DNA from: a virus
Direction: 5' to 3' (one strand)
DNA: 64,000 nt
Virus record (IMG/VR): IMGVR_UViG_3300019927_000044
Coordinates: 3,331 to 67,330 of that record
Numbering within the stretch: the stretch's first letter is position 1; the number at the start of each line of letters is the position of its first letter. The translations under genes and the position numbers were made by a program. Of the stretch, positions 3,380-42,656 are shown one piece after another. The notes below the pieces were generated by a model. It searched no databases. It saw nothing but the letters and a program-made list of their open reading frames with translations, and had not been told where the DNA came from.

Positions 3380-6300
3380 CTACATAAATTTTTCTATATC
3401 TGTTTGTTTTGTATCTGAAATCATTGATTTATAACTCCAATTCATGGCCGACAGAATCGGCGTCAACGAACTGCCGATGGTCTTCTGCAACTGCGTGTCC
3501 ATGTCGATGACGAAGTTATCTGGTACCTTGTTTGGATTCTCGACCGACACTGCATCGACGTTCATTCCATCCTCTTTCGTTTTGGCAGTGTACGTACTGG
3601 GCCAGTCACCGCGGACACGTTCGATGTGTAGTAGTTGTGGCTTACTACCTTCACCCATGTGTTCCCAGTCGAAGTTCTTGTTCGCGTACTTTGCACCGCG
3701 ATACGTTGTCGATGGTAGCTCAGTGGGCGACCCGTACTCGTCTGGGTGCATGCTCATTCCCTTTGGACGGGCGATGTGGGCGTTTGAACACTCACCCCTT
3801 TGGGCTGTATCGTATGCAGTCTTGATGCGCTCACGGATGGCCTCACGCGCCTTAGAACGCTCGTCAATTCGAAGGATATGTTCGAGTACGTCACTGCATA
3901 CCTCGCGGGTAATCGTTGCTCTGTCAGACCGCACTACGTCGATACCAGTCACGTTAAACTCTGCTGGGTCGAACCATTCACCCTCTTCCCATGCGATAAT
4001 TTCTGCGTATCGTTTCTTCCCTTCTGCATTTTTCGTCGCTGGCTCTGGAACAAACAACCACGGCGCATACGACTCTATCTCTAATCTGCAATAATGCTCA
4101 CCATTCTTAATATTAAATGTATCTTCTGTCCACTCATTGTACCATTCGTTAACGCGGTCAGCAGCATCGTGCGCAATCTCTACAACCTCTTCCATATCAT
4201 CGCGGTCCTCGATATCGACATACGGAACAGCGCTCATGACACTATCCGTATCTCCCCCCACAAGTCGGGCGTTCCGCCCGTCGTAACCGCGTTCTTCTTT
4301 AATATCATTTAACGCACCAACGAACTTATCAGATGAGTCGATAATCATCTTCCTTCCACCAAGTGTAATCCCTTCTGCAATGCGCCAATCATACAGTCTG
4401 TAGCCCTTTCCGTAGGAATTACTGTCTCCGAACACTCCGTAGCAATTCGGTATATTGGTAAATTTTCCATTACGTCCAGCAACAAGCATATGATTATCTT
4501 CTACTTGGATGCAGTAGACGCCATTCTGTGCCCGCTCACGAGTCTCGTCACGATGACAGCGGAATGACATATTCGACCGCTCTGTACGCCAAAAGACACG
4601 CCACACCGAGTCACCATGTCTGGAACTATCATCTTCTGTATAAGTCACTGGGTGACCAGTTTCCCACACGAGGCGCATGAAATCGTCTCGAAGATTTGTC
4701 GAAACTGTTGTATATCTCTTTGGTGTATCAGCAGTATCACCATCACCTTTCATCATCGTATCACGTAGCAGCTTTTTCTGCTCCGTACTACATTTTTCAA
4801 ATACCCAAGATGGAATGGTCATATTGTAGCTCCCCTCACCACACCACTCAGTCAACATCTCGGCCCATACAGAACCGCTGTGGTTAATATCTGTATCTGT
4901 GACAGTGTACGATAGCTCCATTTCTTCAAATAGCTCAACTATTTCGCTGTGATGGTCTGGATGCACAGACTTATACTGAGAGATGGATATCCTATCACCA
5001 CGAGGTTCATCACCACTAAGATAAACTGAACCCTCAGTAATAAACCACCCAAGAAGCTTAATAACATTATCAGCATCATAATGTCTTGGGATGGCGTTGT
5101 GTCTTCCATTATCACTACAGCGGATAGATTCATCGGTGGTATCACCATCGTAATAATCCGCGAGGTCGATGGTATCTATACCACTACCATCAGTAGAAAT
5201 CCAATTGTTTGGAGTTTCGTATTGTGTCCACTTATTAAGGTTGCCAGCCTCGGTGTATTCGTATCCTCCACCATGTCGTGGTTTATTGGCGAGGAATCTA
5301 TGGTCTGGCGTTACTTTCAAGTCCATGGATTGGTTCTGTATGTGAACAATTTCACCATCATAGTTTGGCTTTTCTATTGTCTCTGTAACTGGTTTAACCT
5401 GCATTTCTTTTGTTTTTGGGTTGTACGAATACACATCATCACCAACCTCAATATCTGTAATGTTTCGGACCCCATCTGGTGTCAGTACTTCTGTATCGGG
5501 CGTGAAGCAACTATTCACAACCCTCTTAACGGCACTGTAGAGGTCTGTACCATCGTAATCGTTTTTCATTTCCATCAATTCATCTACAACACTATTCATA
5601 AACCCTTCTTTTATCGACGGTTTGCAGAAGTATAGCTTTTCATAATTGGGGCTATCCTCCTTTTTTATGTTCTTTGTACGCGTGTCAATGTATGTCCACC
5701 GACAGTCGTCTTTCGTATATTCAGACGCTTCTAAGTCCTCTTCTGTCCCAATAAGCGTTTCTGGGGACATATTACAGTTCCGAATCATGTTCGGATACAT
5801 CGACCATAGGTCTGGATATACAGCGTTCTTATGCCGCCCAAACTCTGGGGTGAAGTTGTGTGCCCCATAGTACCAATCCCGCTCTGGTTTCTCATTTGTT
5901 GGTAGTGCAATACCAGCATTATAGGCTTCACGAAGAATAAATGGGTCGAGGATATCAATGTTGTTATGGCAGTTATCGAACTGCACGCCTGTCAGCTTAC
6001 GAATGTTCTGGAATAGGTCGGTGACGCCCGCACTGTGGTCGATTCCTACAACGGCCTGCACGTCACGCATGTTGTATTTCAGGAACAGTTCAGGCTCGTC
6101 ACGCCACGCACTGTCGATATCTTCGATTTCTTCTTTCCCGAAGCCTAATTCCCGATTAGCGATGTTTTCGAGGCCGTACCCACCATTGGGCTTGCTGTAC
6201 TGGGTCTTCTTATAGGCCTTCATCATGTCGAAAAAGGTCAGACCTTTGCCAGACGGTCCCCAGCTACCGTCCCAGACCTGCTCCATTGGCGACCAACCCT

Positions 6301-7228
6301 TGAATGACATGATGTTACGTGCCTTACAGCGGTTAATGAGATAGGGGTAGTCGAAGGCCTTCCCATTGTCAGTAGTCGAGGAATTCCAGCCACCAAGCAT
6401 GTCGGGCTGTTTGTCAGCGACGTACTGATTGAAGTTATGAAGTAGCGCCGACTCTTCGTCAAACACACGTACGTCGCTGATATTGACTGGATGGCTGTGG
6501 TCGTCAGTTTCGATAGTGTCTGGCCGATTCTCGACGGCCATATTCTGTATTTCAGTATCGCTGTAGGCCCAGCCCTCATAGCGCAGTACCCAGACAGTGT
6601 ACTCGTCGGTATAGTTGTCGTGGGCAGTGATGGCCGTGACGGGCTGGTCAGCCTCGTCTGGGTCAGGAAACCCGTCTGGACTCTCAACCTCAATATCAAT
6701 CGTTATCTGACGAGGGTCAGCCTTCCAGTCAGCGTCGATGGCTTCAAAATCATCGACGTGAACGCGGTAGTCGCCATTAATGTACTGTGAGTCCCACGTT
6801 TCGTCCTTGTCGACTTCGATGTGGGTATAGATACCATTGTCAATGAGGAATCGCGTGGTGTAGAATACGTCAGCTTCCCACGTTGTATCAAAGTATTCTC
6901 GCAACCCCTCTTTGTCACGACCGCCATTGATATGCTCTGGCAGCTTCGTGTACACTCTCGCAAGGTCGTCGCCATGAATTGACTCGTAGCCACCTTCGGC
7001 GGTTTCGACCCACTGATGATTCTTGACGCGCTGGCTGTATGCATCTCGCTCGATATAGAACGATGGCAGATGCCCTTCAACTTCGACCCAGCGAGATTTT
7101 CCACTTCGTGTCCGACAGAACAGATAGACAACAGGTTCCTCGAACTGTTCGCGGTACTCGATATTCATTATATGCAACTGTTCTGTGTTACTGCCACCGT
7201 CGTCAATAAAGTCGTTCAATCCAGCCAT
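3380..7228 (-). CDS. polB: Family B DNA polymerase with intein
   Basis: ExoI IDIE, ExoII FDYPYL, ExoIII YNMRDV; polymerase motifs DLWSMYP, KRVVNS/CYG, GDTDS. Confidence 0.97.
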   Translation of the reverse strand: MAGLNDFIDDGGSNTEQLHIMNIEYREQFEEPVVYLFCRTRSGKSRWVEVEGHLPSFYIERDAYSQRVKNHQWVETAEGGYESIHGDDLARVYTKLPEHINGGRDKEGLREYFDTTWEADVFYTTRFLIDNGIYTHIEVDKDETWDSQYINGDYRVHVDDFEAIDADWKADPRQITIDIEVESPDGFPDPDEADQPVTAITAHDNYTDEYTVWVLRYEGWAYSDTEIQNMAVENRPDTIETDDHSHPVNISDVRVFDEESALLHNFNQYVADKQPDMLGGWNSSTTDNGKAFDYPYLINRCKARNIMSFKGWSPMEQVWDGSWGPSGKGLTFFDMMKAYKKTQYSKPNGGYGLENIANRELGFGKEEIEDIDSAWRDEPELFLKYNMRDVQAVVGIDHSAGVTDLFQNIRKLTGVQFDNCHNNIDILDPFILREAYNAGIALPTNEKPERDWYYGAHNFTPEFGRHKNAVYPDLWSMYPNMIRNCNMSPETLIGTEEDLEASEYTKDDCRWTYIDTRTKNIKKEDSPNYEKLYFCKPSIKEGFMNSVVDELMEMKNDYDGTDLYSAVKRVVNSCFTPDTEVLTPDGVRNITDIEVGDDVYSYNPKTKEMQVKPVTETIEKPNYDGEIVHIQNQSMDLKVTPDHRFLANKPRHGGGYEYTEAGNLNKWTQYETPNNWISTDGSGIDTIDLADYYDGDTTDESIRCSDNGRHNAIPRHYDADNVIKLLGWFITEGSVYLSGDEPRGDRISISQYKSVHPDHHSEIVELFEEMELSYTVTDTDINHSGSVWAEMLTEWCGEGSYNMTIPSWVFEKCSTEQKKLLRDTMMKGDGDTADTPKRYTTVSTNLRDDFMRLVWETGHPVTYTEDDSSRHGDSVWRVFWRTERSNMSFRCHRDETRERAQNGVYCIQVEDNHMLVAGRNGKFTNIPNCYGVFGDSNSYGKGYRLYDWRIAEGITLGGRKMIIDSSDKFVGALNDIKEERGYDGRNARLVGGDTDSVMSAVPYVDIEDRDDMEEVVEIAHDAADRVNEWYNEWTEDTFNIKNGEHYCRLEIESYAPWLFVPEPATKNAEGKKRYAEIIAWEEGEWFDPAEFNVTGIDVVRSDRATITREVCSDVLEHILRIDERSKAREAIRERIKTAYDTAQRGECSNAHIARPKGMSMHPDEYGSPTELPSTTYRGAKYANKNFDWEHMGEGSKPQLLHIERVRGDWPSTYTAKTKEDGMNVDAVSVENPNKVPDNFVIDMDTQLQKTIGSSLTPILSAMNWSYKSMISDTKQTDIEKFM
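4445..5509 (-). mobile_element. Intein (355 aa) with LAGLIDADG endonuclease in PolB motif B
   Basis: Begins CFTPDTEVLT, ends GRNGKFTNIPN before Cys+1; LLGWFITEGS and TMMKGDGD blocks. Confidence 0.92.
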
Positions 7229-7332: not shown

Positions 7333-7503
7333 TTACTCTTCTATTGGGTCCATCGACACCATCACTTTCAGTACGTCGATGGCTGCGTGATAGTACAGAT
7401 TTTCCCTGATTACGTGGTCGTCAGCGTTTTTAGCGGCCTCTGTTCTTGCACATGCCTGTTGTATCAACTGTCTCTGCATCAATAGGCGTTCTGAATCTCT
7501 CAT
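7333..7503 (-). CDS. Small hypothetical protein (56 aa)
   Basis: Manual translation MRDSERLLMQ...DPIEE; ATGA overlap with the upstream gene. Confidence 0.55.
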   Translation of the reverse strand: MRDSERLLMQRQLIQQACARTEAAKNADDHVIRENLYYHAAIDVLKVMVSMDPIEE

Positions 7504-7955
7504 TGGTTGTCGTACACGTATCTATGTCCATGCGACCGAAGCAGTTCGTTGGGGTCACCGCGACCATCTTGGGCGTTCGTCACCCATTGCAGTCCTTTAT
7601 CGAAACCAATGTCACGCTCACATGCGATGATAGCCGCACAGATGGTCACAGAGCGGCTTCGACCAGCATGGCAGTGTACGAGGACCTGTTCATTCTGGAC
7701 CCACTCAGAAATGTTCTCAGCGGCTATCTCGAACATTGTATAACTACAGTCGCCGCCATGTTCTTGCTGTGACTCGACACCATCAGCTAACATGAAATGG
7801 TCGTAGGGGATTCGACCAGCCACGTTATTTTCACAGCGGTCTTGGCAAACGCTGACAATGCGGTCGAACTTTCCTGCCGTGGACCCATGTCTAACTTCTT
7901 CGATGGACGCATTCCACAGTTGCCCGCCGTCAGTTCCGTAGATTGGATAGACCAT
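7500..7955 (-). CDS. Dual-specificity/Cys-based phosphatase
   Basis: VLVHCHAGRSRS (HCxxGxxR) P-loop; upstream LADG general-acid loop. Confidence 0.88.
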   Translation of the reverse strand: MVYPIYGTDGGQLWNASIEEVRHGSTAGKFDRIVSVCQDRCENNVAGRIPYDHFMLADGVESQQEHGGDCSYTMFEIAAENISEWVQNEQVLVHCHAGRSRSVTICAAIIACERDIGFDKGLQWVTNAQDGRGDPNELLRSHGHRYVYDNQ

Positions 7956-7996
7956 TACATACTACCATATGTGTACATCATATAAAAGTGTTTTTG

Positions 7997-8512
7997 TTAC
8001 GATTGCTCAATTTCGTCGGCGGCTGTCCCGACACCATCGACGCGATAGAAATAGCCATTCACGTCGATGTCACGATTGTAGGGATGGTCAACGAGGAACA
8101 TGAACATGTCTGGTTCGTCGTCAACTAACTCTGCCAGCTTCGGTTTATCGTCAATGTAGGCGTCATGCGGTGTATGCAGCTTTTCACTTTTCGGTGTAAG
8201 AAACTCGTTGTAGGGGATGTTGTGGTGCTGTAGCCACGATTGTATCTGGTCATCAACGTCAAAGCGATGGGTGACGATATCAACAGTGTGTCCAGCCTGC
8301 CGCATCCGCTCGACGTGATGCCCAAGGTAGGGTTCACACGGTTCGATATCCAGCGGCGACTCTTCCCACATTTCTTGCGTGATTTCATGAAACTGGTCAC
8401 GCTGTTCTGGGTTTTCAAAGCCCCATGAGTCTACATCGTCAATACCCATTTCATCGTACGCTGGTTCGTGTATCTCAGCCAACACACCTTCCACGTCCAG
8501 TGCAATTTGCAT
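7997..8512 (-). CDS. HAD-superfamily 5'(3')-deoxyribonucleotidase-like protein
   Basis: IALDVEGVL motif I, IVTHR motif II, K and YIDDKP motif IV. Confidence 0.8.
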   Translation of the reverse strand: MQIALDVEGVLAEIHEPAYDEMGIDDVDSWGFENPEQRDQFHEITQEMWEESPLDIEPCEPYLGHHVERMRQAGHTVDIVTHRFDVDDQIQSWLQHHNIPYNEFLTPKSEKLHTPHDAYIDDKPKLAELVDDEPDMFMFLVDHPYNRDIDVNGYFYRVDGVGTAADEIEQS

Positions 8513-8568
8513 ACACCACTATAGGTGTACTACGTATAAAAAGTCTTCGGTTACGGTTCAGTTACTGT

Positions 8569-9171
8569 CTATTCGTCGTCTTCATCATCGTCGTCAGTAG
8601 GGTTCCCAGCTTCGCTGCCATTGCCAGTCTCCTGCTGAGTTTCGGTATCCGACGAAGGTTCGTCCGCCGTACTTTCCTCGTCGTTTGAGGTAGCAGAGTC
8701 GCGCTCTGCGGAGTCGTCTTCTGACGACTCAACACTACCGATGTCGTCTCGAATCTGCTCGATGGTACGTTCACCGACGCCCTTCGCGTCCATCAGTTCC
8801 TCGTCAGTTGCGAGGTAGACTTCTGTCGGCGTGCTGATATCGTGATTCTGTCTGAGGCGCTTGGCGTAGGTCGGTCCGATACCAGTGATTGCCGTCGTAC
8901 CATCGTATTCACTGAGGTAGTCTGGTAGCTGTGGTTCGTCACCCGCAGCTTCTTCGTCAGTATCGCCCTCACTATCAGTAGCATCGTTGTCAGCCACAGC
9001 CGCCGTATCCGTATCAGCAGCCGTCTGGTCGCCGCCGAAGGTAACGTCGTCGTTCCCGTCGTCGTCAACGTCGACGCTTGCTTCATTGCCGCTGAAGTAC
9101 GCGTACGCAGCCGCAGAGATGGTTGTAAGTGCAATGCCGCCAGCCGCCACGAATTCAGGTGGAACATTCAT
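8569..9171 (-). CDS. Membrane-anchored helix-hairpin-helix protein
   Basis: N-terminal hydrophobic helix; ITGIGPTYA and AKGVGERTI HhH motifs between acidic linkers. Confidence 0.75.
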   Translation of the reverse strand: MNVPPEFVAAGGIALTTISAAAYAYFSGNEASVDVDDDGNDDVTFGGDQTAADTDTAAVADNDATDSEGDTDEEAAGDEPQLPDYLSEYDGTTAITGIGPTYAKRLRQNHDISTPTEVYLATDEELMDAKGVGERTIEQIRDDIGSVESSEDDSAERDSATSNDEESTADEPSSDTETQQETGNGSEAGNPTDDDDEDDE

Positions 9172-9173
9172 TG

Positions 9174-9569
9174 TTAGTTGTCTCCAAGTTCGATGGTCCC
9201 GCGCTCATTGAGGGACGCATTTGTAGTGACGCCACCAATCCCCATAAGTGTGTCGAAAGTCACTTCGTCTGGGTCCACGTCAGTGTGCGATGCGACGAAC
9301 TGCACCAACGGACTGTCATTGTCGCCAGTACCGTCATTAGGAATCAGGAACTCGCGCTTACCAGTTCCGTACAGTTCACCGTCAGCGGTCTGAACGCCGA
9401 AGTGGAAGACGACAGACGGTTCGTCAACCAGATTCGGTTCTGGCTCAGTGAACGTTGCTTGCAGGTCAAGCGTAGCCTCACGCTCGCTGAACAGTTCTCG
9501 AAGCGCCTCAGTTGAACTGCGGTCGTCTGTGCTAAATAGTGCGTTACGCACGTATTGTAGTAGGCTCAT
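9174..9569 (-). CDS. Hypothetical protein (131 aa)
   Basis: Acidic ORF with upstream TATA-like element. Confidence 0.7.
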   Translation of the reverse strand: MSLLQYVRNALFSTDDRSSTEALRELFSEREATLDLQATFTEPEPNLVDEPSVVFHFGVQTADGELYGTGKREFLIPNDGTGDNDSPLVQFVASHTDVDPDEVTFDTLMGIGGVTTNASLNERGTIELGDN

Positions 9570-10274: not shown

Positions 10275-10892
10275 TTAGATGCCGTAATGTTCGATTGCAC
10301 CCTCCTTCGTTCGGTACAGATGGATACCACTGGTACAGCGCGCAGTCACGTCATCATCAAACTCGTTTTCGGGCTGAATCAGGTCACCAAGCTCGTACTC
10401 GAAATCATTGTCATGACGTGACACATCTTCGAACACACCAGACGCATTTTCGGCGTCACTCATGAATTCTCGCTCTTTATCAGCAAACTCGTCTGGGTCG
10501 TACATGTCTGCGACGAAGGCCATGTTTGTTCGCAGCTTTTTTCGACCAAATGCGCTGTGGCGTGGATACACGACCTTGGCCGTGGGAGGAAGGAGTAGCT
10601 TGACGATAGCATTGCGAGTTGCCTTCCACGCAACACGTTCTTCCTCAAGGCGGACTACTTCACCGTCTTTCCCTTCAAGTTCGGCAACGGCATCAGTCTC
10701 GATATTGAAGCGGTTGTACATCGCCTCTGCAAACTCCTCGAACTTGTTTTCAATACGCTCAGCCTTCCGCTGTGCGTTGTCAGCAACGTTTGCAGCACGT
10801 CGCGCATCTTCCTGTGCTGTTTCTAACTCGTCTTCAAGTGCTTCGATTCGGTCTTCGTTCTCAACTGTCGAACCGCCAAGTAGGATTCCCAT
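10275..10892 (-). CDS. Coiled-coil + DUF5758-like protein
   Basis: IVKLLLPPTAK...KLRT...FEYELGD...FDDDVTARCTSGIHLY pattern. Confidence 0.65.
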   Translation of the reverse strand: MGILLGGSTVENEDRIEALEDELETAQEDARRAANVADNAQRKAERIENKFEEFAEAMYNRFNIETDAVAELEGKDGEVVRLEEERVAWKATRNAIVKLLLPPTAKVVYPRHSAFGRKKLRTNMAFVADMYDPDEFADKEREFMSDAENASGVFEDVSRHDNDFEYELGDLIQPENEFDDDVTARCTSGIHLYRTKEGAIEHYGI

Positions 10893-10944
10893 GTGCGTTT
10901 CATTATAAAGTCTTTATTGTAATAAGTGTTTTCATTCACGTTCA

Positions 10945-11362
10945 AAAAAAAACGGTCGGATAGCCCGTTACCGCCACACTTTGTGGTGATACGATACCTG
11001 TTTCAATGTGGCCTACTGGCACGGAGGCAGTCGACCAAATGTCGAACTCATCCATATCATTGAGCCGCGATTATATGCGGCAATCTAACAGGCTGGTGTC
11101 CATTTAATCCATACTTCGCCACAGTTCACCCAACAGTTACCTTTAGGGCGATGCCCTATTCGGCATCGTCCTATCGGCTCGTGCGATAGTACGATACTTT
11201 GCCGTGCATAGGGTATACACCGTTTCACGAGGTCAGTTGTGTAGCGCGCATGGAACCACTTTTCATTTCGGTATCTTAATTTGGTTTATGCTTGTTTTGC
11301 GTCGGTGGAAGGGGCATATCAACCCACCATCCGTGTCAGGGGTAGTTCGACCACCGACATAC
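10945..11362 (-). ncRNA. Putative structured ncRNA A (~410 nt)
   Basis: No long ORF; TATA-like element at 11381-90 and T9 run at 10944-52 on the - strand; multiple helices. Confidence 0.6.
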
Positions 11363-11399
11363 TATGTTAGGAACCCCGTGTATAAAAAAGTTTCGAAAA

Positions 11400-11676
11400 T
11401 AAATGGAAGAGGGCTGCATGATTACCGCACCCACAGCCGTTAGTTAAAGGCTTTTCCTATCTCATATCCCTTACCGTAAGTGTCTACATGACGTTTCACC
11501 GTCATCCCCGACAATCTTACAAGGGCTATAATTCGGTCTACCATACTGTTGTGAGCCATGACCTCCCTACAGCGTTAATCAGCTATGGTCATGCGGCCTC
11601 CAAGCGGACAGCCTACCGCTCTCATCGCAAGATGCTTAGTTGTATGCACTAACTTCCTCTCGTGTGAGAGGCATGT
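11400..11676 (-). ncRNA. Putative structured ncRNA B (~275 nt)
   Basis: No long ORF; TATTAAGTA about 21 nt upstream; nested helices with G-U pairs on the - strand; T-rich end. Confidence 0.6.
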
Positions 11677-11712
11677 AGTAGTACACAACCCAGCTACTTA
11701 ATACTTGTGAAA

Positions 11713-11979
11713 CTATTCCATTTTCTCCATCCCATCAACGCTAATTGAGATACTATCATCTCGACGTTGCCGACCAAGTTCAAACTGCTCACTCGCCGTA
11801 TGACCGACCAGTTCCGCCGTCAGACCGTCGCCAACGTCAAAGACGATGCATACCACCTTCGTCAGTCCAAGGCTCTTCATCTCCGTCTCAACGACTGTCA
11901 GCGGCTCTGGCACTTCGTCAGTATCGAACTGTACAACATCTCCTTCCTGTAGGTTTTCGGGCCTCATTCGTCGTAGCAC
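11713..11979 (-). CDS. Hypothetical protein
   Basis: Acidic ORF; true start probably MRPENL. Confidence 0.6.
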   Translation of the reverse strand: MLRRMRPENLQEGDVVQFDTDEVPEPLTVVETEMKSLGLTKVVCIVFDVGDGLTAELVGHTASEQFELGRQRRDDSISISVDGMEKME

Positions 11980-22732: not shown

Positions 22733-23569
22733 TTACATAAAGGTGTCGGATGCTTTTTCAGCAAACTCGTCTGGGTCACAGTCTTTCCACCGTCCTTCAC
22801 AACGACTGTGACAACTGCTACAAAGTGTAATTAAATTATCTAATGTATTAGAATCAGACACATTATCAAAATCACTTCGAGGTTTAATATGATGAACGTG
22901 GTTGGATTCGTCTTTAAATTCGCATACTTGACAGATATAGCTGTCACGGTCTAACCTTTCTTGACGTATTTCTTCCCAACCAGAACCATACGCTCTTTCA
23001 CCAGTACCAGCCAACTCTTTCATATCTAATCTATTAATTTTCAATCCAGCTTCTTTCAATGCCTCATTCCACGACCCAAAATTTCTTTGATAAGTTGTAC
23101 TATCCCAAGGGCCGTCATCATTCATATCCCCCTTTGTTGGCGTTCTGCCCAATTCTTCTGCAAATTGCTGTAAATCTTCTATTAATTGCCGTTTAGATTT
23201 TACACATTCTATCTTTTTATTAATATCTAATCCAGCCTCTTCTAATGCATTATTCCATGACCCAAAATGTCGATGATAAATATTTGCATATCTCTGTCCA
23301 AATTCTTCCATTTTTTCTTGTGTTGGGGGACCGTCCACTTTTTCTGCAAATTGTTGGAGGTCTTTTATTAATTGTTCTTTAGACACCCCCTTTTCTTGGT
23401 TAACATCTAATCCAGCCTCCTTCAATGCTCCATTCCACGACTCAAAATACTTCACATAAGTTGTCGGACTCCACGGACCTTCATCATTCATGTCGTTTTG
23501 CGTCGGCGTTTTACCCAACTCTTCCGCAAAAATCTTCAAGTCTTCTATTAATCGGTCATCGCTAACCAT
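22733..23569 (-). CDS. HNH endonuclease with three homing-endonuclease-associated repeats
   Basis: Three LIEDLxxFAEELGxTPT...FGSWNxALxEAGL repeats; RDSYICQVC...HVHHIKP...NLITLCSSCH. Confidence 0.9.
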   Translation of the reverse strand: MVSDDRLIEDLKIFAEELGKTPTQNDMNDEGPWSPTTYVKYFESWNGALKEAGLDVNQEKGVSKEQLIKDLQQFAEKVDGPPTQEKMEEFGQRYANIYHRHFGSWNNALEEAGLDINKKIECVKSKRQLIEDLQQFAEELGRTPTKGDMNDDGPWDSTTYQRNFGSWNEALKEAGLKINRLDMKELAGTGERAYGSGWEEIRQERLDRDSYICQVCEFKDESNHVHHIKPRSDFDNVSDSNTLDNLITLCSSCHSRCEGRWKDCDPDEFAEKASDTFM

Positions 23570-23937: not shown

Positions 23938-24798
23938 CTATTGCCCTCCAAGAACGTTTTCAGTATCGAAGTTTTCTATAACTTCCATATAGCGCTCTCG
24001 CTCCCTTGAGCGGGCATGTTCCCTGTTGTGACAGATTTCTATATCTACTACATCAATAAATTCTATTTTTCCAGACTCTCTATATTCCTTCACATTATGT
24101 GATGGAATTCTATTCACTGGCGAGTTTGTCATACCAACGTAGTACCACACTTCATTAAGTGAATTTTTTAATTTTATTGTGTAAACATATTGTTGGTGGT
24201 TATATAAATTATTTTGCTGCATATATTTTTTAACTTTTTCTTCAACATCCTTTGGCGATGGGGTAGACCCTACATCTGTGGCCCATTTTAATCCATCTAA
24301 TAAACGAACGCGCCTTTTTGACTGCTCAAATTCTTTCATTTCAGAGTTATTAAATGGGTTTTTACTATTACCGTTTTTAGCATCATATTCTGCAAATGTT
24401 TCGTATATTCTTCCAAATTCTTTGTCCATAATATATGATATAAACCGCCGTCCTTCTTTTGAGCGCATTACATCCTTGTTATATGTATATTCATTATGTA
24501 TTCGAAGCTTTTTACTAACATAATTATAAAACCATTCAAACCCCCACTCTTTAGCCACACTTCTATCCATTTGTTCTATTTTAACGTATGGCCTAAATGC
24601 TATATACATATCATGTGCGAGAAACCTGCTATGCATCCTATCGACAGCTTCACTACACACTTGAAACTTAGAACTTACACTTCTACCGCCTTTGTTATAT
24701 TTAATTTTTGCTTTTGTACCCACTGGTTTCATGAAATCGCATTTAGAACTATCAAACAATCCTATACGCATCCATTCTCTCTGAGACATACGAAACAC
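23938..24798 (-). CDS. GIY-YIG endonuclease (C-terminal nuclease domain)
   Basis: YVYTIKL...YYVGMTNSPVNRIPSH...ERE; AT-rich, basic. Confidence 0.8.
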   Translation of the reverse strand: MFRMSQREWMRIGLFDSSKCDFMKPVGTKAKIKYNKGGRSVSSKFQVCSEAVDRMHSRFLAHDMYIAFRPYVKIEQMDRSVAKEWGFEWFYNYVSKKLRIHNEYTYNKDVMRSKEGRRFISYIMDKEFGRIYETFAEYDAKNGNSKNPFNNSEMKEFEQSKRRVRLLDGLKWATDVGSTPSPKDVEEKVKKYMQQNNLYNHQQYVYTIKLKNSLNEVWYYVGMTNSPVNRIPSHNVKEYRESGKIEFIDVVDIEICHNREHARSRERERYMEVIENFDTENVLGGQ

Positions 24799-24947
24799 TT
24801 TATGCTATAAGTATATAAATCCAGCGAAGTAGTAACAGCACAACAATACAACAGTAGTAACAGCACAGTCCAACTCCCGTAGTCACCGCCCCGCACAACC
24901 CTATTGTTGTATATGTACTACTATAGTAAAAGAGTGTCGGTCTGCCC

Positions 24948-25304
24948 CTACTCGCTACCGCGACAGTCGTCTGCGTCACATCGCTCTTCCCACGACCCTA
25001 TCATGTCAACAGTAAAGACTTTTTTATATGCATAGCGATAGTTGTTACAGTCTTCACATCGCTCTTGTACCGCTTCATGTAGAACCGCTGTCTTACCGTC
25101 TCCTTGCCCTTCTACTTTGAACGGCTTAGAATTGGCGTGTGCTGTAGCAAGCAATGGCTGTTTGCTGCCTCTATGTTCTATTTCCCAATGGTGTCCGTTA
25201 CAGCCCTCTGTGTTGTCGCTACTTTTCGACTTGTAATACGCTCGAACAATACCTGCTGTAGCAGTCACCGCAGCAACAACTGGTAGTGGGTCAATATTGA
25301 ACAT
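24948..25304 (-). CDS. Protein with N-terminal hydrophobic segment and Cys/His motifs
   Basis: LPVVAAVTATAGIV; CNGHHW, CEDC. Confidence 0.6.
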   Translation of the reverse strand: MFNIDPLPVVAAVTATAGIVRAYYKSKSSDNTEGCNGHHWEIEHRGSKQPLLATAHANSKPFKVEGQGDGKTAVLHEAVQERCEDCNNYRYAYKKVFTVDMIGSWEERCDADDCRGSE

Positions 25305-25402
25305 TGCAGATAGACCTCTATGGCCTACCTATAAAAAACTTCGTATTGAAAATACTCAGTCAATACGATGCCGATATATTCGCCATTGGAAAGTTGTCGA
25401 AG

Positions 25403-40776: not shown

Positions 40777-42656
40777 TGTACGACGGTATGCCCGAGGAAC
40801 TTCGTGAACTACTCCCTCACGACATTCGTCTTTATATGCGAAATTTGTGGGTTCATCCCAACGACCCAACACGAAGTTACGATTTTTATGATGACGTTGG
40901 TCCAGCAGAAGATGAAGACGATGAAGAAGGGCAGTTTCTTCACTATCTTGCTGACGAAGATGGACCACTTGTTCCGAAAAATTGGGGCGATGTAGTTGTT
41001 CTTAATTTCGCTCGTGGGTGTCTAAAAACAACGACGGCGACTGCGGCTGCTGACTGGGGCGTGAGCCAGTTCCCCATGATTGAAGTTGACATTACTGCAC
41101 CGCGACAAGAGCAGTTCGGTGAAGTAATGGACAGATTTAAGGGGGCCGTCAAAAACAGCGGCATGGAAAAGCTACGGACGAAAGACAATATTAGTCACCA
41201 GAAGTTCGAGCGCGTACTTGAAGATGATAGCGGTGATACAATTAACGTCGAAGCTGACGTGAAGGCACGTTCTGCGTGGGGTAGCGGTGACGCACTTCGT
41301 GGACTGCACGGCCACTTCGGTATTATTGACGAGTTTCAGGACGTTGACGAATCGATGTTCTCAACGTTCCTTGAGGCAGTCGACCAGTCTGTTCCGCAAG
41401 TTCCGTATTTCCCGACGATTTTCATTATTGGAACGCCGAAGATGGCCAATTCGTTCTTCCATGACCTTTGGTCAATGTCGGACCAAAAGACGTGGAAACC
41501 GTACGAAGATAAAGATGGTGGCGAATGGGTCGAGCAAGACGAGCCAGACGAATTTATCCCACCCGAGCTTGCTGAACGGCGCGAGGAACTGCACGAAGAA
41601 GCAGATGAGTATATTGAATATTTGCATGGCGTTGCGAGAGAGGCTTACAATGAATGGCAGTCGCGTGATGATGCGCCACGAGATGTAGCTATTCCAGACG
41701 ACCTACAATCGATTGTTGCAGAAATCCAGAGCAAGCGTGAGGCTGCATCGTCTATTGAAGGTTATACTGTTACTGGCTGGCACATCGACCAGTATGCGTC
41801 CCCACTGCACGATGATGCAAAGATAGAATTTAAGCGCCAAAAATATACCGAAAAGAAGTTTAAAAACGAGGTGCTGGCAGAGTTTTACACGCCAGAAAAC
41901 GACCTGCTTGCCGACACGCACGTTAATGATGCATTTATTGACGACGCTGGCTTCACAAACAGACGGCAGTATGATGATAGCACTGTCGTGATGGGCGTTG
42001 ACTGGGGTGGTGGTAGTTCCGAAGATGCGTCAGATACTGTTATTGTCGTTGGTGAGCAAATCGGTGACGATGAGAGTGAGCGAATTGTAGTTCGGGATAT
42101 CGAATTCCTTGACCCAGACCTCAATAAGCAAGACGAATTGGACGAAGTTGAACAGCGCATACGTGACTATGAGGTTGACCGCATTGCGGTGGACGAGGGG
42201 TACGGCGCAAAGCAGCGTGAAGACCTGCAAGAAGGGAATAACATCTGGAACGATGATGGATGGGAGTCTGTATGTGGTATAATTTACGGCAACATCAAAG
42301 ATAAGGAAAAGCCGAAGTTTAGTGATTCAAGCTTTACTAACTCCGCATACTGTACTGTTGCCCGAACACACATGATTGAATCGATGGTCGACTACTTCAA
42401 AGATGGGCGGATTGAGATTCCCGCTGCGGATATGGATAACAACCGTGACGGGATGAAACAACAACTTATTGACCATTTGACTGCCCCGTACACTGATAGG
42501 ACAGAAACCAGTGGTGGGAAAAAGAAACTAAAAGTGATGGCTGACAGAAACGATGACGCGTTTCAGGCCTTCACGTATATGTACATCGCTGCTAAGAAAT
42601 TTGGCAGCACGAGAACGTTGACGAAAATTGGCAGCCATAATCGAACTGGATACTAA
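40776..42656 (+). CDS. terL: Terminase large subunit
   Basis: FARGCLKTT Walker A, GIIDEFQD Walker B, IGTPK, MGVDWG and NDDA nuclease motifs. Confidence 0.92.
   Translation: MYDGMPEELRELLPHDIRLYMRNLWVHPNDPTRSYDFYDDVGPAEDEDDEEGQFLHYLADEDGPLVPKNWGDVVVLNFARGCLKTTTATAAADWGVSQFPMIEVDITAPRQEQFGEVMDRFKGAVKNSGMEKLRTKDNISHQKFERVLEDDSGDTINVEADVKARSAWGSGDALRGLHGHFGIIDEFQDVDESMFSTFLEAVDQSVPQVPYFPTIFIIGTPKMANSFFHDLWSMSDQKTWKPYEDKDGGEWVEQDEPDEFIPPELAERREELHEEADEYIEYLHGVAREAYNEWQSRDDAPRDVAIPDDLQSIVAEIQSKREAASSIEGYTVTGWHIDQYASPLHDDAKIEFKRQKYTEKKFKNEVLAEFYTPENDLLADTHVNDAFIDDAGFTNRRQYDDSTVVMGVDWGGGSSEDASDTVIVVGEQIGDDESERIVVRDIEFLDPDLNKQDELDEVEQRIRDYEVDRIAVDEGYGAKQREDLQEGNNIWNDDGWESVCGIIYGNIKDKEKPKFSDSSFTNSAYCTVARTHMIESMVDYFKDGRIEIPAADMDNNRDGMKQQLIDHLTAPYTDRTETSGGKKKLKVMADRNDDAFQAFTYMYIAAKKFGSTRTLTKIGSHNRTGY

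Follow-up and report, generated by a model that had tools for sequence, protein, structure and literature searches.

The locus raises the question whether a block of about 410 bases without a protein gene, situated amid the replication genes of a virus, could itself be the gene of an RNA. The block (10944-11360, minus strand) is termed RNA A here. The window, i.e. the whole stretch of 64,000 nucleotides that was analysed, comprises bases 3331-67330 of a 67,387-base IMG/VR record that is rated complete. Its source is an uncultivated tailed virus of haloarchaea of ~67 kb, the large terminase of which shows 47.6% identity to the counterpart in Haloarcula tailed virus 2. As the GC content of the virus is ~47%, the host is probably a low-GC haloarchaeon. 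The left 30 kb form a minus-strand gene block for replication and nucleotide metabolism that encodes a family B polymerase with intein, a helicase, HD, NT5C, a phosphatase, a HhH protein, and HNH and GIY-YIG endonucleases.

The ORF-poor gap and its transcription signals

RNA A is situated in a gap of 820 bases (10893-11712), the largest ORF-poor gap of the leftward replication block. The gap is bordered by two minus-strand genes, that of a DUF5758 protein (10275-10892) and one of 88 aa (11713-11979). ORFs within it do not exceed 47 aa on the gene strand or 79 aa on the opposite one and none of them is conserved in relatives, so that the ORF-free block described in the original prediction was confirmed. 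The DUF5758 protein has a predicted coiled coil in its N-terminal part and the DUF5758 domain in its C-terminal part. Elsewhere this domain constitutes, according to the atlas consulted, the C-terminal part of viral proteins with pentapeptide, LRR, HEAT or MORN repeats; the atlas holds no link of the domain to RNA. An AlphaFold2 model of the protein was of low confidence (mean pLDDT 52.7) and therefore too poor for a fold search. No RNA-processing gene was found among the neighbours of RNA A.

On the minus strand of positions 1-30400 a regular promoter class is discernible, (A)CAC-TTTTT(T)ATA, followed by an ATG ~24 nt later that is often preceded by (A)TAGTATGT. Distinct minus-strand sites were counted with the regular expression C(C/T)T3-6AT(A/G), which gave 16 sites including the RNA A copy. 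At 13 of the 15 others an ORF of 34-1282 aa begins with an ATG that follows the motif after 21-26 nt (mode 24). Such a spacing implies that the mRNAs of at least 13 genes are leaderless. The promoters of this class at 14432-14424 and 13816-13807 drive only ORFs of 34 and 51 aa, which are likely to be real small proteins. The TATA box of RNA A, CTTTTTTATA, is found at 11390-11381 on the minus strand, and the promoter is nearly identical to that of the gene at 9174-9569, including the start-proximal TAGTATGT; the two were also recovered independently as a self-hit of 83%. The place of the ATG in these genes is taken by CGGTGG in RNA A. The claim that the block shares the TATA-to-start geometry of neighbouring genes was thus borne out.

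The same holds for the claimed T9 end: between 1 and 30 kb, runs of at least seven T on the minus strand occur four times including that of RNA A, all of them intergenic. T9 is a strong termination signal in archaea. Between the T-run and its ATG the DUF5758 gene possesses a TATA element of its own, which is conserved in all relatives. Together with the promoter and the T-run this element frames RNA A as a separate unit. What marks an archaeal transcription unit was therefore found here, i.e. a BRE/TATA at the spacing that is the genome's own and an oligo-T 3' end, and the identity with gene promoters and the rarity of the oligo-T end support the earlier proposal that the RNA has its own promoter and terminator. 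The host RNA polymerase would start ~24 nt downstream of the TATA box and transcription would end at the T9 run. As the TATA class is the same as that of the neighbouring genes for replication and nucleotide metabolism, RNA A would be expected to be made together with them. The features are compiled in Table 1.

Table 1. Positions in the window of the elements assigned to RNA A and the evidence for each
Feature	Position	Strand	Evidence
BRE/TATA-type promoter, CGAAAC + CTTTTTTATA	11381..11396	minus	motif and spacing as in 13 gene promoters on the same strand
Predicted start region	11354..11360	minus	inferred from the 24-nt TATA-to-start spacing; ~11356 in TAGTATGT/CGG
Micro-ORF of 13 codons, MSVVELPLTRMVG	11319..11360	minus	ATG 20 nt after TATA box, 4 nt before usual start position
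RNA A body, ~405 nt, without conserved ORF	10953..11358	minus	92.7-95.7% identity in L003/L004/L005
Predicted long-range 12-bp helix H3	11339-11326 with 11028-11016	minus	RNAalifold; invariant in all sequences
A-rich linker, predicted single-stranded	11260..11304	minus	unpaired in consensus; variable in L005
Predicted 14-bp helix H6, closing the central domain	11108..11254	minus	RNAalifold; one G-U/G-C change, otherwise invariant
Hairpin H8, best covariation-supported helix	11201..11221 (11221-11214 with 11208-11201)	minus	alignment columns 146-153/159-166
Facultative 57-nt double-hairpin module including the 12-bp stem	11138..11194	minus	absent in L005 and in the contig of run X3
Helix H11 enclosing hairpin H12 (GCCGC/GCGGC)	11052..11092	minus	pair 11086/11059: A-U in window, G-C in all three relatives
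3' hairpin region H14, alternative pairings S1:S3 or S2:S3	10973..11012	minus	covariation in L003
Oligo-T (T9) terminator	10944..10952	minus	A9 on plus strand; T10 in L003 and L005; interrupted in L004

Conservation in related viruses

Homologues were reached through the DUF5758 protein. They comprise two metagenomic contigs of JGI, L003 of 9.2 kb and L004 of 3.7 kb, and one of Logan, L005 of 2.6 kb. Further partial variants are present on Logan contigs from four runs of hypersaline-lake and related samples, the virus being contained in the hypersaline-lake samples of runs X1 and X2. The full homologues are thus three in number, two of which are almost identical across the 5' two-thirds, and the occurrence of RNA A is limited to a small lineage of viruses.

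RNA A diverges by 4.3% from L004, 7.3% from L003 and 6.2% from L005. For the adjacent DUF5758 gene the divergence is 13% overall, reaching 25% in the third position of codons against ~7.5% in the first two, and the upstream gene region is ~85% identical in the relatives. On three separate contigs the divergence of RNA A is 3-6 times below that of the third codon positions of both flanking genes. The constraint is thus about as strong as on the positions that determine amino acids. This comparison of sequences shows strong purifying selection on the nucleotide sequence of RNA A, the high identity of which could in part derive from recent recombination.

The substitutions are spread evenly over the three phases (11/10/9), i.e. 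a 3-periodicity is absent, and no ORF of RNA A is conserved among the relatives on either strand. A frame of 37 aa is broken in L003 by indels of +4 and -2, the 47-aa frame meets a stop after nine codons in L005, and the 79-aa frame on the plus strand is cut by a 1-nt deletion in L005 and by a gene insertion in L003 and L004. This inserted gene encodes 82 aa of no known family and lies between RNA A and the region upstream of it (L003:2619-2867, L004:979-1227; between window positions 11396 and 11378). The cassette brings a duplicate TATA region of ~19 nt, so that the cassette gene and RNA A each keep a promoter, which looks like a cassette exchange at promoters. The TATA box of RNA A is kept in both contigs despite the insertion directly upstream.

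The region that is separated from RNA A by the cassette is itself ORF-poor (window 11400-11712, minus strand, directly upstream of RNA A) and is termed RNA B. Neither of the two is disturbed by the insertion of the 82-aa gene with its duplicated promoter. RNA B is ~97% identical in L003 and L004 (L004:520-960; L003:2160-2600) if one disregards two insertions (55 and 51 nt), each of which is a hairpin pair. The stems of the two insertions differ and a frame CCGCA(A/G)AGUGCG...CGCACGAGGC is shared. RNA B opens with a frame of 12 codons, MPLTREEVSAYN, which has PLTR in common with the 13-codon frame of RNA A. The stop of the RNA B frame is lost in L003 and L004 (12 versus 24 aa). A paralogous relation of RNA A and RNA B was considered and rejected, the scores of local alignments being below the shuffle mean.

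These short frames bear on the possibility that the transcript is the mRNA of a micro-peptide, e.g. of the 13-codon frame at 11360-11319, with the remaining ~360 nt as a structured 3' untranslated region. The ATG of this frame 20 nt after the TATA box is near a leaderless start, the three nucleotides by which the PLTR codons of RNA A differ from those of RNA B all occupy third positions, and two neighbouring promoters of the same class drive the ORFs of 34 and 51 aa mentioned above. The sole substitution in the frame among the relatives is synonymous as well, which gives no power to judge coding. However, the ATG is 4 nt upstream of the position used by the 13 gene promoters, the RNA B frame does not retain its stop, and a peptide fails to explain why ~360 nt downstream are conserved like first and second codon positions. 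A micro-peptide mRNA is therefore quite improbable.

A more distant relative, IMGVR_UViG_3300007852_000001 (G001), is a complete genome of 64.5 kb with direct terminal repeats and a GC content higher than that of the window virus. Its terminase is 74% identical and its DUF5758 homologue 34% identical. Directly upstream of the latter a gap of 780 nt without substantial ORFs is present (L034:715-1494, corresponding to 24596-25375), which contains TATA-like elements and has a folding z of -3.8. The gap holds a tRNA-like element (L034:931-999) that scores 27.7 bits against a gathering score of 29 and has the anticodon loop CUCCAAA; there were no other Rfam matches in the gap. Near its 3' end two direct repeats of GTCTCCACGGTGGCTTT were noticed. 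Neither by sequence nor by covariance model was similarity detected between this gap and RNA A. A structured island devoid of ORFs thus seems characteristic of the position ahead of DUF5758 in the virus group, for which this one genome is suggestive.

The position directly upstream of DUF5758 in both lineages could also be expected of a long cis-acting leader or attenuator of this gene that operates by controlled read-through at the T-run. This run is indeed interrupted in L004 (TTTTCTCTC, 1670-1757, after window position 10949), and the same contig has a net insertion of 75 nt with an 8-bp GCCAGCGA/TCGCTGGC hairpin between RNA A and the DUF5758 promoter. The interruption would fit read-through, whereas the additional 75 nt argue against a leader, as do the conserved TATA element that DUF5758 has for itself between T-run and ATG and the general strength of T9 as a termination signal. 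A leader function is in our judgement very improbable.

Secondary structure and hairpin modules

The folding energy of RNA A differs modestly from that of shuffled sequences (z = -2.0 for the minus and -2.9 for the plus strand), the minus strand being no better than the plus strand. A consensus structure was obtained with RNAalifold from the alignment of the four sequences and is thus fitted to the data that score it. On the minus strand this consensus has 101 pairs, seven of them changed on both sides, a covariation term of -2.31 and 99.5% of the cells paired. With the partners slid by 1-3 columns the paired fraction drops to 32-46%. None of 500 column shuffles matched the observed compensatory count or the covariation score, a result that refers to a fitted consensus of four sequences. 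In the plus-strand consensus the compensatory pairs number three, broken pairs are more numerous and the covariation term amounts to +0.31. Of the seven one-sided changes at paired sites of the fitted consensus, six leave a G-U pair when read on the minus strand, whereas the plus-strand reading would be A-C.

In a non-circular test the minimum free energy structure of the window sequence alone was scored against a permutation null. Eleven changed pairs were kept and 11 were broken, which is the same as in the null. Compensatory pairs numbered three on the minus strand versus 0.54 expected (P=0.012), and one versus 0.41 on the plus strand. As full homologues are few and two of them nearly identical, covariation has little power. 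Our reading is that several local hairpins are really conserved and that, of the two strands, the signal is in favour of the minus strand. The global fold, with its ends paired, the 12-bp H3 and the 14-bp H6, is only weakly indicated and is a prediction, because it rests on invariant columns.

The best of the local hairpins, H8, occurs in three haplotypes with four pairs changed on both sides: GGUGU/ACACC in L003 and L004, ACCGC/GCGGU in L005, and GGUGU/ACGGC with one G-G mismatch in the window. In H14 the pairs of columns 359/398 and 364/393 are compensatory in L003, where one further pair is broken. With regard to the helices that had been pointed out originally, the arms of the 12-bp stem (11144-55/11162-73) are real, 12 nt long and 92% complementary, and the stem has a wobble on the plus strand in the window. 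The helix of GTCGGTGG (11358-11351) with CCACCGAC (11308-11301) is also present, and the change that it undergoes in relatives keeps the pair as U-G. The long-range CCTGTT/AACAGG pairing fared less well: it exists in the sequence but is broken in L003, and the competing local helix H11 covaries.

The module that includes the 12-bp stem is not a fixed part of RNA A: L005 and a contig of run X3 lack it, and a contig of run X2 has a second copy of it near 11330-11334. It occupies an internal loop of the consensus fold and its loss thus leaves the other helices intact. Such hairpin turnover fits peripheral domains of a structured RNA. Fold-back (templated) mutation, to which the locus also seems prone, is able to imitate compensatory change, which is a reason for caution against over-reading the covariation.

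Palindromes and compensatory changes in their arms are equally expected of DNA hairpins. The block could accordingly be a DNA-level element with cruciform-capable palindromes, such as a protein-binding region, a recombination hot spot or a replication or packaging signal. That folding of the plus strand is no poorer than that of the minus strand, and that the wobble of the 12-bp stem falls on the plus strand in the window, would agree with this. Against it, repeated boxes, an AT-rich unwinding tract or repeats in common with the rest of the genome are absent, and promoter and terminator frame the block exactly. In addition, the six of seven one-sided changes that keep a G-U on the minus strand only, counted on the fitted consensus, point to RNA. 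A DNA element is, on this evidence, decidedly unlikely.

The block may alternatively be a spacer or a decaying remnant without function, its identity being due to recombination or hitch-hiking and its hairpins to fold-back mutation. This is suggested by the tiny and closely related set of homologues, by the gain and loss of hairpin modules in RNA A as well as RNA B, by the window-only structure in which preserved pairs are not in excess, and by the cassette gene inserted in the same gap. A spacer is nevertheless difficult to reconcile with a divergence 3-6 times below that of the third codon positions of both flanking genes on three contigs. A perfect copy of the viral gene promoter and a rare T9 run would not be expected to frame it, the adjoining RNA B is ~97% conserved too, and an ORF-free gap is retained in the distant relative. 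We regard this explanation as rather unlikely.

Relation to known RNAs and possible function

The identity with gene promoters, the rare oligo-T end, the absence of a conserved ORF, the low divergence and some compensatory changes in favour of the minus strand support a large RNA with its own unit, in line with the original prediction of an undescribed large RNA. From these features RNA A would be an independently transcribed, structured, non-protein-coding RNA gene of the virus, a reading that we hold with somewhat better than even confidence.

No known family was recognized. Positions 10800-11800 were scanned on both strands with cmscan against 4227 Rfam families, including all those of RNase P (archaeal, bacterial A/B and type T), without any match at E<=10. 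At the gathering score Rfam gave no match over the whole window. The relative L004 had no match either, also at E<=10. The models of GOLLD, ROOL, HEARO, OLE and phi29 pRNA likewise did not match at E<=10. ARAGORN, also when introns were allowed at a lowered threshold, detected no tRNA or tmRNA in the window, and no Rfam tRNA match was present at E<=10. RNA A has no homologue by blastn in 50,697 phage records and 72,556 plasmids, nor by exact 18-23-mers in IMG/VR. A 19-mer search of JGI metagenome contigs returned a single match, L006, which is a 20-nt chance match. Protein-anchored scans with the DUF5758, HD and HhH proteins and with the G001 DUF5758 homologue did not provide further homologues of RNA A, and the homologue search with the 88-aa neighbour led to one short contig that ends short of RNA A. 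A covariance model of the central domain (R1) detected nothing in the records of five related viruses, nor did it reveal a paralogue within the window.

A relation to RNase P had been put forward originally because of words that resemble CR-II, CR-III and P7-P5. These words do exist at 11272-11197, and in size RNA A is like RNase P RNA. They are however situated on the most variable columns (97, 99, 100, 146, 147, 164-166 and 169) of sequences that are ~95% identical overall: in relatives ACCGAAAT is changed to ACCGAGAT or A-TGTGAT, GTGAAACGG to GTGAAACAC, and GGCAAAG to ACCAAAG or GGTAACG. RNA A thus differs from RNase P RNA both in the Rfam models, none of which matched, and in the invariance of the CR words. 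CR-I is absent, as had been observed at the outset. The lack of an Rfam match, the variable words and the absence of CR-I together lead us to reject the RNase P link. A divergent RNase P RNA or an RNase-P-derived ribozyme can hardly be entertained, and the analogy should not be carried forward.

The species 1 and 2 RNAs of T4 ('band C/D') and the GOLLD and ROOL RNAs of prophages are phage-encoded stable structured RNAs with a role that is not deducible from sequence. Like these, RNA A is virus-borne, hundreds of nucleotides long and ORF-free, with its own predicted transcription unit in an ORF-poor island, and the island of G001 also holds a tRNA-like element. RNA A differs in that it matches neither GOLLD, ROOL nor any other Rfam family, belongs to a virus of Archaea, has a TATA/BRE promoter and an oligo-T terminator, and occurs in one small lineage. 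Nothing comparable was encountered in Rfam, in the phage and plasmid collections or in the literature searched. The RNA A family is new and has, as a virus-encoded stable RNA, precedents in phages.

Non-coding RNAs transcribed from virus promoters have been described for tailed viruses of haloarchaea, namely the T-ant antisense RNA of phiH and the antisense RNAs of HFTV1 (PMC12542753). Those transcripts lie antisense to genes of the virus, whereas RNA A does not overlap with a gene and its complementarity to the rest of the genome does not exceed chance. An antisense action on viral mRNAs was therefore rejected: the best complementarity is an exact match of 14 nt between the terminase mRNA (41373-41386) and RNA A (11024-11037), of which ~0.1-0.2 are expected by chance, and it was not counted as evidence. 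In the halovirus HRTV-DL1 an expressed non-coding RNA is derived from a PATE of the IS200/IS605 kind (PMC10544981). RNA A resembles it as an ORF-free, palindrome-rich block of ~0.4-0.5 kb in a halovirus genome. It differs in being single-copy, in the absence of a TnpB nearby and in its promoter of the virus gene type. A PATE/IS200-IS605 MITE was rejected, given the single copy in the genome and the lack of a match in the phages and plasmids that were compared.

Other candidates were dismissed as well. As regards mimicry of CRISPR repeats, only the 7-mer CCCTTGT, located in RNA B, is in common with a haloarchaeal repeat given in PMC5974055; chance would yield ~2.4 matches of this kind, and the CRISPR-DR models of Rfam did not match the RNA A region at E<=10. 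The genome-wide CACGAG motif is at chance level, the hairpin is unique in the window and not a member of a repeat family, and the similarity to the late motif TGTCAGTACG named in the original prediction extends to 8 of 10 positions, which is not significant.

As to the function of the putative RNA gene, the ~405-nt product would have several selected hairpins and probably a closed multi-helix body with its ends paired and with H3 and H6, a body that would tolerate gain and loss of the peripheral 57-nt double-hairpin module. Our best guess is a stable RNA that may act in trans through a protein partner, as a scaffold or decoy, and not as an antisense RNA to viral mRNAs. This mode of action is given well under half the credence of the RNA gene itself. 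RNA A would probably act together with the adjacent and equally conserved RNA B. A bolder proposal, which we consider doubtful, is that the two found a new class of large structured RNAs in tailed viruses of archaea, i.e. stable, closed and modular ribonucleoproteins that would be co-expressed with the replication genes, hijack or neutralize a host factor (for instance as a defence decoy) and gain and lose stem-loops at their periphery, the island upstream of DUF5758 in related viruses, with its tRNA-like element in G001, being their conserved home.

To our knowledge, apart from a few antisense transcripts almost nothing has been learnt about the non-coding RNAs that archaeal viruses encode, and we know of very few large archaeal RNAs in Rfam. 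On computational evidence and few relatives, RNA A would count among the earliest proposals of a large structured RNA from an archaeal virus. An RNA gene of ~400 nt that is conserved like coding positions and is placed beside a second such gene would offer a concrete entry point for study, and the presence/absence polymorphism of the hairpin modules amounts to a natural experiment on the gain of domains in structured RNAs.

Homing-endonuclease genes were also noticed. L003 carries two additional ones of the HNH/HNH-repeat type (5824-6627 and 7815-8714), inserted between syntenic genes that are neighbours in the window (compare 7500-9171). The window for its part has an HNH gene (22733-23569), the gene of a GIY-YIG protein (23938-24798) and the intein in PolB (3380-7228).
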